In this document: positions 17,684 through 17,774 of the stretch, piece after piece | Layout of the letters: every line of letters starts with the position of its first letter | Numbering within the stretch: position 1 is the first letter of the stretch | Assembly: GCA_944391955.1 (NCBI GenBank) | Contig: CALXVG010000001.1 | Span: forward strand, 17,716-81,715 | Reading direction: 5' to 3' | DNA length: 64,000 bases | Source of the DNA: an uncultured Clostridia bacterium | GTDB taxonomy: Bacteria > Bacillota > Clostridia > TANB77 > CAG-508 | Position numbers and translations under genes: made by a program | Notes under the pieces: model-generated | What the model was told of the DNA's origin: nothing | Seen by the model: the letters and a program-made list of their open reading frames with translations, nothing else | The model's database searches: none

Positions 17684-17774
17684 CGGAGGTCGGACATCAG
17701 AAATCAGAAATCGGACATCGGACATCAGATGTCCGATGTCGGAGGTCAGATGTCGGACTTCCGATTTCCGTCAT
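17684..17774. repeat. heptad repeat element copy A: 13 tandem 7-nt units C[G/A/C]GANNT forming an imperfect 44-bp-arm palindrome
   Basis: Units are CGGAGGT CGGACAT CAGAAAT CAGAAAT CGGACAT CGGACAT CAGATGT CCGATGT CGGAGGT CAGATGT CGGACTT CCGATTT CCGTCAT. The element fills the whole spacer between two convergent stop codons (17679 and 17778). Confidence 0.85.

Follow-up and report, generated by a model that had tools for sequence, protein, structure and literature searches.

In a 64,000-nucleotide stretch of an uncultured Clostridia bacterium (contig CALXVG010000001.1 of assembly GCA_944391955.1, hereafter the window), three intergenic loci, termed copies A, B and C, carry tandem arrays of a degenerate seven-nucleotide unit, T-C-N-G-A-N-N (TCNGANN). 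These arrays are lineage-specific degenerate heptanucleotide tandem repeats and part of a known, functionally unexplained class of intergenic heptamers. In the reading that we favour, with a probability of roughly 55%, the heptamer array was born by slippage and at copy A provides both adjoining genes, spoVT and a ylbF-like gene, with their 3'-end hairpin or terminator, while copies B and C are probably near-neutral.

Copy A was read directly as 13 units of 7 nt at window positions 17684-17774, every unit beginning with C and ending with T (CGGAGGT CGGACAT CAGAAAT CAGAAAT CGGACAT CGGACAT CAGATGT CCGATGT CGGAGGT CAGATGT CGGACTT CCGATTT CCGTCAT). Tandem Repeats Finder (TRF) detected a period of 7 at all three loci and, at copy A, an additional 21-nt super-period (17690-17770). 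Direct reading and TRF together confirm the 13 in-register units that an earlier reading of the window, made from the letters alone (the sequence-only reading), had described. The more natural register for the unit is TCNGANN, in which the first unit of copy A becomes ACGGAGG. Three consecutive units of this pattern (TCNGANN x3) matched 11 times in the window compared to 0.00 times in 100 dinucleotide-preserving shuffles, and five consecutive units (TCNGANN x5) matched 7 times compared to 0. All x3 matches were confined to 17690-17764, 28479-28497 and 57910-57928, that is, to copies A, B and C. The further copies announced near 28466..28507 and 57886..57934 are real, and all three arrays are intergenic and non-coding. 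Three loci in 64 kb thus have one unit in common, with the same fixed and variable positions. The arrays measure about 42 (B), 49 (C) and 91 nt (A), differ from each other in unit order and have a G+C content of 50-59%, compared to 28.8% for the whole window.

The genes and sequence elements at copy A are the following.

17125..17679, plus strand: spoVT, an open reading frame (ORF) for a 184-aa protein with an AbrB/MazE-type N-terminal domain and SpoVT_C (PF04014 and PF15714 in identical contigs)
17683..17774, no strand: copy A, a 13-unit heptad array (TCNGANN) that fills the spacer of two convergent stop codons
17714..17740, no strand: central perfect 13-bp stem (GACATCGGACATC / GATGTCCGATGTC, 17714-17726 / 17728-17740), followed on the minus strand by the U-rich units UUUCUGAUUUCUG
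17778..18107, minus strand: ylbF/ymcA-family gene (Com_YlbF), an ORF with PF06133

Within a spacer of 98 nt, the array is separated from the spoVT stop codon by 3-4 nt and from that of the ylbF-like gene by 3 nt, so it does abut both stop codons, as had been stated.

An inverted-repeat search revealed 44-nt arms in copy A (17683-17726 / 17728-17771) that are 77% complementary and separated by 1 nt, with the dyad at 17727. The central 13-bp stem is perfect, its 6 variable positions included. Along the arms, 26 of 26 core positions (T, C, G and A of TC-N-GA) are paired, but of the variable positions only 8 of 18 match their partners (shuffle mean 5.5, P = 0.14). As the core TC-N-GA reads the same on both strands and recurs every 7 nt, any such array is self-complementary at 4 of 7 positions and can fold back, and the palindromy of copy A is for the most part an automatic consequence of this core. 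The right half furthermore contains GGA-type units as well (TCGGAGG, TCAGATG, TCGGACT), which makes copy A a mosaic with no clean inverted duplication. Of the proposal that the array consists of two inverted halves with an arm of about 44 bp, the arm length and the dyad centre stood, while the pairing proved to be driven largely by the core. A true inverted duplication as the origin of copy A was weakened as a candidate, as the complementarity comes mainly from the palindromic core.

RNA folding yielded -50.7 kcal/mol for the plus sense and -46.2 kcal/mol for the minus sense of copy A (z = -6.3 and -5.8). Copies B and C, which lie outside convergent gene pairs, fold far more weakly (B sense RNA, -12.2 kcal/mol, z = -1.7; C, z = -2.7). 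On the minus strand, the central stem together with its tail TTCTGATTTC was scored as terminator-like by a simple terminator scan (17737-17710). Ordinary terminators are in use elsewhere in the organism, where this simple scan returned 11 and 14 terminator-like sites per 20 kb compared to about 5 expected.

Comparison with related species showed that copy A occupies the exact position of a classical bidirectional terminator. In a species with 81% identical YlbF, the ylbF-spoVT spacer holds AAAAAAATTGAGAGGCAAAGCCCTCTCAATTTTT (AAAAAAATTGAGAGG..CCTCTCAATTTTT), and in a species with 83% identical YlbF it holds AAAAGAACAATCTTACAAAAAGCAAGATTGTTTTTTT (AAAAGAACAATCTT..AAGATTGTTTTTTT). Both are textbook bidirectional intrinsic terminators with the layout A-tract, GC-stem, T-tract. 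A species with 89% identical YlbF has a 97-nt degenerate heptad hairpin in the same spacer, its GC-rich stem bordered by A-rich and T-rich units (AGAAAAT AGAGGTC ... GACCTCT GTTTTCT). A heptad hairpin has persisted at this site in the lineages with 100%, 95%, 92% and 89% YlbF identity. All versions of the spacer that were compared fold with -20 to -51 kcal/mol on both strands, and every copy A allele and sister-species version retains a very stable hairpin. The terminator position in the relatives and the strong hairpin in all alleles support the terminator or mRNA-stabilising element that the sequence-only reading had listed as an alternative. Arrays of at least 4 units were absent from an estimated 95 kb of non-redundant sequence from relatives, whereas the 64-kb window has 3 of them, a density at which those 95 kb should hold roughly 4-5. 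The heptad arrays are lineage-specific insertions or expansions.

A different, AT-rich period-7 array was detected by TRF at window positions 34362-34391 (TTATTCA x4.3), where it supplies the 3' arm of a hairpin with A-tract, stem and T-tract. Its 19-nt core ATTAATTATTCACTATTCA recurs unchanged within the ylbF-spoVT spacer of a sister species with a classical terminator (L141, 10371-10389), and this common core suggests that a second, AT-rich heptad motif may circulate in the group.

The YlbF-like protein is also encoded on many metagenome contigs and in the metagenome-assembled genome (MAG) GCA_947857255.1, which allowed alleles of the array to be compared. Gene content (spoVT, spoIVA, bofA and genes for dockerin proteins) points to a spore-forming Clostridia lineage. 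Within one species, copy A occurs as the 13-unit allele on eight contigs and as a 7-unit allele on two, the latter being 42 nt shorter and altered in several units. A contig with 92% identical YlbF, from another strain or species, contains a 12-unit copy A with a different left half (a 7-nt difference), and a contig with 95% identical YlbF contains the identical 13-unit array. At copy B, one strain (L399) lacks exactly 14 nt, corresponding to 2 units, through a deletion between two TCAGA repeats. Copy C has two alleles that differ, over the stretch compared, at two variable unit positions. Comparing unit numbers among strains, which had been suggested as a check, thus revealed whole-unit differences at A and B, and these inter-strain indels of 14, 42 and 7 nt lend support to the earlier suggestion of a slippage-prone microsatellite.

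Two further observations concern the assemblies and the surroundings of the arrays. In sample ERZ28614030, scaffold N-gaps fall inside the arrays at copy C (L139) and copy B (L407); short-read assemblies break within arrays, and public unit numbers may therefore be unreliable or more variable than they appear. When window positions 13012-23229 were aligned with the strain carrying the short allele (L007, L010), identity was 99.3-99.6% on the ylbF side and 97.8-97.9% on the spoVT side, and the switch occurred exactly at copy A. Copy A may hence mark a recombination boundary.

In the reading that we favour, the arrays would gain and lose units through replication slippage or unequal recombination, as the whole-unit differences suggest, and the palindromic core would let an array fold back on itself. 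At copy A, position and folding suggest that the hairpin would form the 3'-end structure of the convergent spoVT and ylbF-like mRNAs. There it would stop or pause RNA polymerase, aided by the U-rich units past the stem, and it would block 3' exonucleases.

Several points weigh against this reading. Since the hairpin potential follows mostly from the core, and the variable positions contribute little beyond the shuffle expectation, conservation of the fold among alleles is weaker evidence for selection than it might appear. The U-tracts of copy A are poor. The plus-strand direction, that of spoVT, was not flagged by the terminator scan, and the tail after the full-length hairpin is merely AUUUCCGU, which makes the case for a terminator weaker in this direction. 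We infer transcript termination or 3'-end protection from position and folding alone. Moreover, the identical array at 95% YlbF identity indicates that turnover is not uniformly fast, slippage by itself leaves the presence of one unit type at several unlinked loci unexplained, and the census comprises three loci only.

Copies B and C lie in different surroundings, with the features given below.

28465..28507, minus strand: copy B, about 6 units (ACGGAAA TCAGAAA TCGGACA TCAGACC ACTGACA TCCGT, read in the direction of the downstream gene)
28515..28543, minus strand: promoter-like site TTGACT-17-TATACT by consensus match (10/12); predicted start at about 28508
28546..28585, minus strand: classical hairpin with T-run (AAAACGAGCAGAAATTT..AAATTTTTGCTCGTTTT) after the upstream gene 28603-30600, read by eye and not flagged by the simple scan
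57222..57848, minus strand: upp, downstream of copy C
57886..57934, minus strand: copy C, 7 units, not palindromic (ACGGATG TCGGATG TCGGAGG TCGGATG ACTGAAG TCGGAAG TCGGAGG in sense)
57937..59646, minus strand: argS, upstream of copy C

Copy B ends 5 nt before the Shine-Dalgarno sequence of a gene for an SH3/dockerin cell-wall hydrolase (26548-28446, minus strand) and would make up the first ~45 nt of its predicted 5' untranslated region (UTR). The hairpin at 28546..28585 shows an ordinary terminator in use right beside this copy. The gene upstream encodes a 665-aa beta-propeller protein, and its start overlaps the end of a gene for a 161-aa ECF-type sigma factor (Sigma70_r2/r4); together the two genes lie at 28603-31100 in the window, on the minus strand (2023-4498 of L399). 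This arrangement is typical of sigma/anti-sigma pairs, and the hydrolase gene might belong to the regulon of this factor, in which case the match to a sigma-70-like promoter would be irrelevant. Copy C runs from 2 nt past the argS stop codon to 38 nt short of the upp start codon, and a promoter scan found no promoter-like site at this argS-upp junction. The argS-upp spacer has 88 nt here compared to 12-20 nt, essentially TAA + GGAGG + ATG, in relatives with 92-94% identical Upp; upp has a separate AGGAGG 8 nt upstream of its ATG. The neighbours of B and C are minus-strand genes, so the transcribed strand shows CGGA units at both copies, just as had been claimed. The non-palindromic copies B and C are most likely tolerated insertions, near-neutral and with at most modulatory effects.

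A genome collection was searched for TCNGANN x5. This returned at least 120 loci in many phyla, and many of the arrays were palindromic as well. Among the matches listed were Verrucomicrobiota, Acidobacteriota, Planctomycetota, Bacteroidota, Cyanobacteria, Chloroflexota, Desulfobacterota, Patescibacteria, Xanthomonas, Sphingomonas and one Clostridiaceae MAG. Independent period-7 arrays with many unrelated units occurred in those loci, again among the matches listed, and a control core of the same composition, GANTCNN x5, also had many matches in viral contigs, as did TCNGANN x5 itself. The cross-phylum matches are therefore no evidence of homology; it is the period and not the sequence that is common, and a conserved cross-phylum TCNGA family was rejected. 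The Clostridiaceae MAG (CATLDI010000008.1, L015) contains two heptad arrays at 3793-4085. The first is a 130-nt array with the purine-rich strand in sense and a 21-nt super-period (GGACGGAAGTCGGAAGTCGGA), which begins right where an MMPL-type transporter gene has its stop codon. The second is inverted, 35 nt long, located about 125 nt further on and ends just before the Shine-Dalgarno sequence of the next gene. The stretch that separates them holds two copies of AATGTAGGGG.

At 4 of 4 array-adjoining gene 3' ends (spoVT, ylbF, argS and the MMPL gene of L015), the purine-rich strand lies in the mRNA sense. Gene context in the cross-phylum loci was derived with a home-made, crude ORF caller. Among the matches listed (L011-L130), 16 of 32 sense-purine arrays were situated no more than 25 nt from an upstream stop codon, compared to 10 of 37 arrays of opposite polarity (Mann-Whitney p = 0.06). 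Pyrimidine-sense arrays near start codons were counted among the same matches in 13/34 compared to 1/30 cases; this clustering is probably inflated or an artefact, because called ORFs are cut short by the stop codons within TCTGA units. Inspected by eye, the palindromic arrays among the matches listed mostly show their purine-rich arm at the 5' side. The sense-purine trend agrees with the polarity preference reported by Rehm et al. (PMC4692102). It may be speculated, with little confidence, that stop-adjoining heptamer arrays with the purine strand in sense are a recurrent 3'-end or termination module, working through a hairpin, an R-loop or a protein with a 7-nt footprint, and that such a module displaced the classical bidirectional terminator here. 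If this were true, it would be the first function for the 'prime-number' heptamer repeats across bacteria.

Among the alternatives to a 3'-end hairpin at copy A, the one to be taken most seriously, though we consider it doubtful, is a neutral slippage-prone microsatellite without function at any locus, with spoVT and ylbF transcription ending otherwise (by Rho, collision or read-through) and the hairpin as a by-product of the core. The poor complementarity of the variable positions (8/18, P = 0.14), the poor U-tracts at A, the lack of obvious structure in B and C and the existence of published heptamer families without demonstrated function are all in line with neutrality. It is harder to reconcile with a spacer that, at A, holds nothing else able to end two convergent transcripts while relatives retain strong classical terminators, with the persistence of the heptad hairpin at this site in all four lineages down to 89% YlbF identity, and with a central 13-bp stem that is perfect even at its variable positions. 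An RNA-protein platform, in which GGA/UCRGA units at 7-nt spacing bind CsrA, as a sponge or a cis site, or a protein with a footprint of about 7 nt such as a cold-shock or OB-fold protein, appears improbable. The purine-rich (CGGA) strand is in the mRNA sense at B, C, both ends of A and the first L015 array, the GGA motifs of copy C are partly accessible (P unpaired 0.18-0.42), and CsrA, S1 and Csp have been suggested as binders of TAACTGA heptamers (PMC4679880). Against such a platform, the GGA motifs of copy A are nearly all paired (P unpaired 0.00-0.37 on both strands), the unit context is UCGGA and not A(N)GGA, the first unit of A excepted, and unit number and sequence vary freely among strains. 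None of the copies is an independent small RNA (sRNA) gene: A fills its stop-to-stop spacer and, as the array takes up the 98 nt, leaves no room for a promoter, B lies in a predicted 5' UTR and C inside the argS-upp junction. Rfam at gathering threshold returned only a tRNA and no Csr/Rsm family in the 64-kb window, and scans of copies A and C at E <= 10 gave noise only, with no match to CsrB, CsrC or RsmX/Y/Z. Neither CsrA (queries from E. coli and B. subtilis) nor FliW had a tblastn match in the window and the clade loci, which is weak evidence given the small genome fraction that these represent. For copy A, the CsrA/Rsm-type sponge RNA put forward in the sequence-only reading was rejected on account of the paired GGA motifs, the UCGGA context, the missing Rfam match and the lack of room for a separate sRNA gene.

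The remaining alternatives concern the ribosome, mobility and DNA itself. Slightly less probable than a protein platform are Shine-Dalgarno-like decoys, that is, GGAGG units (ACGGAGG, TCGGAGG and the AGGAGG just before B) that bind 30S subunits as STAB-SD 5' stabilisers, reportedly described by Agaisse and Lereclus in 1996, or as ribosome-retention sites between coupled genes. GGAGGU does occur in A (plus sense); C has 2-3 occurrences, according to the allele, the predicted B transcript has it at its 5' end, and in L015 the motif recurs about every 21 nt. Copy C furthermore replaced a spacer that in relatives is little more than a stop codon, GGAGG and a start codon. Most units, however, are without GGAGG, the minus-sense RNA of A carries CCUCC, GGAGG is buried in the stem at A, and upp is served by its separate AGGAGG 8 nt before the ATG. 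A palindromic mobile element, similar to REP/BIME elements, MITEs or small dispersed repeats and spread to three loci by a transposase, is very unlikely. It would account for one unit type at unlinked loci, for the empty sites in relatives and for the A-CGGA start of all sense-strand arrays, but length (42-91 nt), unit order and symmetry vary from copy to copy, the copies have no full-length element in common and no terminal inverted repeats apart from the unit itself, and the indels are whole units. No transposase was seen nearby, no search aimed at transposases having been made. The mobile element was rejected for want of a fixed architecture and of a target-site duplication at C when compared to the empty site of relatives. 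We regard as least probable of all a role at the DNA level, such as cruciform or slipped DNA, a site for a DNA-binding protein or the tuning of a contingency (phase-variation) locus, for instance of the surface hydrolase downstream of B. Copy B does have a promoter-like site on one side and, on the other, the Shine-Dalgarno sequence of the gene for the secreted SH3/dockerin protein, and it differs by 2 units between strains, and the switch in strain identity from 99.3% to 97.9% at A suggests a recombination boundary. The neighbours, however, are mostly housekeeping genes (argS, upp, spoVT), B lies downstream of the -10 element, so that its unit number leaves promoter spacing unchanged, and published heptamer families are without a link to phase-variable functions (PMC4692102).

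Heptamers are the commonest intergenic tandem repeat of prokaryotes. In one genus-level group, a single convergent spacer is occupied by a textbook terminator, by a degenerate heptad hairpin or by palindromes of 7, 12 or 13 units, which amounts to a natural experiment, and a second array was inserted into a coupled operon junction (argS-upp) that formerly had 12-20 nt. If 3'-end data showed termination or stabilisation of both mRNAs at copy A, one member of the class would have a concrete, testable function, and the class, whose published families come from Proteobacteria, Cyanobacteria and Bacteroidetes, would be extended to low-G+C Firmicutes. If there were no such effect, the array would be an ordinary hypervariable microsatellite and at most a marker for strain typing.

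Other observations in the window do not touch the arrays. The gene prfB for release factor 2 (57130-57208, minus strand) has an apparent classical +1 programmed frameshift site: a short ORF runs from the ATG at 57208-57206 into CTT TGA C at 57136-57130, and the 347-aa PCRF/RF-1 frame continues in +1. Gene callers split prfB into products of 40 and 347 aa. At about 20500-23200 (L001, 4783-7509, compared to L003, L004 and L009), some strains carry a Bro-N + ORF6N (phage antirepressor-like) block upstream of DUF2508-bofA and others carry another gene, so that the block looks like a strain-variable island. Beside spoVT, an alanyl-tRNA-synthetase-like gene (15199-16995, minus strand) encodes 589-598 aa with tRNA-synt_2c and tRNA_SAD domains and is conserved in all relatives examined; this length is presumably short for a full-length AlaRS.

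Among known systems, copy A resembles a bidirectional Rho-independent terminator in lying between convergent stop codons, in forming a stem-loop on both strands, in replacing the terminator of relatives and in being flagged on the minus strand. Unlike such a terminator, it has a far longer stem with frequent mismatches and short, broken U-tracts, is built from repeats and varies among strains. REP/BIME elements of enterobacteria are GC-richer imperfect palindromes in 3' UTRs and convergent spacers that are thought to stabilise upstream mRNA and to attenuate transcription; REPs are fixed units of about 35 nt and are mobilised by RAYT transposases. The arrays described here have no fixed unit above 7 nt and change by whole heptads. 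With sponge sRNAs such as CsrB, which contains CAGGAUG-type 7-nt repeats, and RsmZ, they have in common repeated GGA motifs at near-7-nt spacing. In contrast to these sRNAs, copy A is no independent gene, its GGA motifs are mostly paired and stand in a UCGGA context, and it has no Rfam match.

The closest likeness is to other intergenic heptamers, of which the cyanobacterial STRR heptamers were reportedly described by Mazel et al. in 1990. The heptamers of Xanthomonas (GGGAATC / GGGANTN) and Nostoc (GGGGAYT) are likewise 7-nt units with fixed and variable positions at dispersed intergenic loci, form inverted array pairs and vary between close relatives at the same gene pairs. They differ from the present family in that the unit here is TCNGANN with its palindromic core, the host is a spore-forming, Clostridiaceae-like organism of 29% G+C, and three loci are found so far; without G-tracts, TCNGANN has no potential for G-quadruplexes, unlike the Xanthomonas and Nostoc units. 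Rehm et al. (2015) reported about 185 loci with heterogeneous (GGGANTN)n arrays in two Xanthomonas genomes, 70-75 cases being paired inverted arrays able to form stem-loops. These arrays are strongly intergenic, have their G-rich strand preferentially on the coding strand downstream of genes and differ in length and sequence between close species, and a function was not found (PMC4692102). MacGregor (2015) described direct repeats of the heptamer TAACTGA in Beggiatoaceae, Cyanobacteria and Bacteroidetes, for which S1, Csp or CsrA were proposed, but not shown, as binders (PMC4679880). Those repeats are also tandem and intergenic with 7-nt-step indels between strains, and their reverse complement TCAGTTA resembles the variant units TCAGTGG and TCAGTCA of B and C. 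Most TAACTGA sets, however, consist of 2-6 direct copies immediately before a start codon, whereas the longest array here is palindromic and runs from stop to stop. According to the summary in PMC4679880, Mrazek et al. (2007) saw heptanucleotides as the most abundant long simple-sequence repeats and proposed polymerase slippage tied to a 7-nt contact. This class is defined by period and not by sequence, and the survey of Mori et al. (2019) saw 'no clear clue' to the function of heptamer repeats (PMC6344855). A novel repeat family in the sense of the sequence-only reading is thus not what we see, as intergenic tandem heptamers are already published as a class, with consensus units that differ from species to species, inverted pairs and 7-nt-step variation (PMC4692102, PMC4679880, PMC6344855). 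Tandem 7-nt units, a non-coding location, several loci and polymorphism in 7-nt steps were all found, and the TCNGANN family fits the prokaryotic intergenic heptamer class on every feature examined. The class is known; the lineage-specific TCNGANN family is new and a good test case for the old question of what such repeats do.

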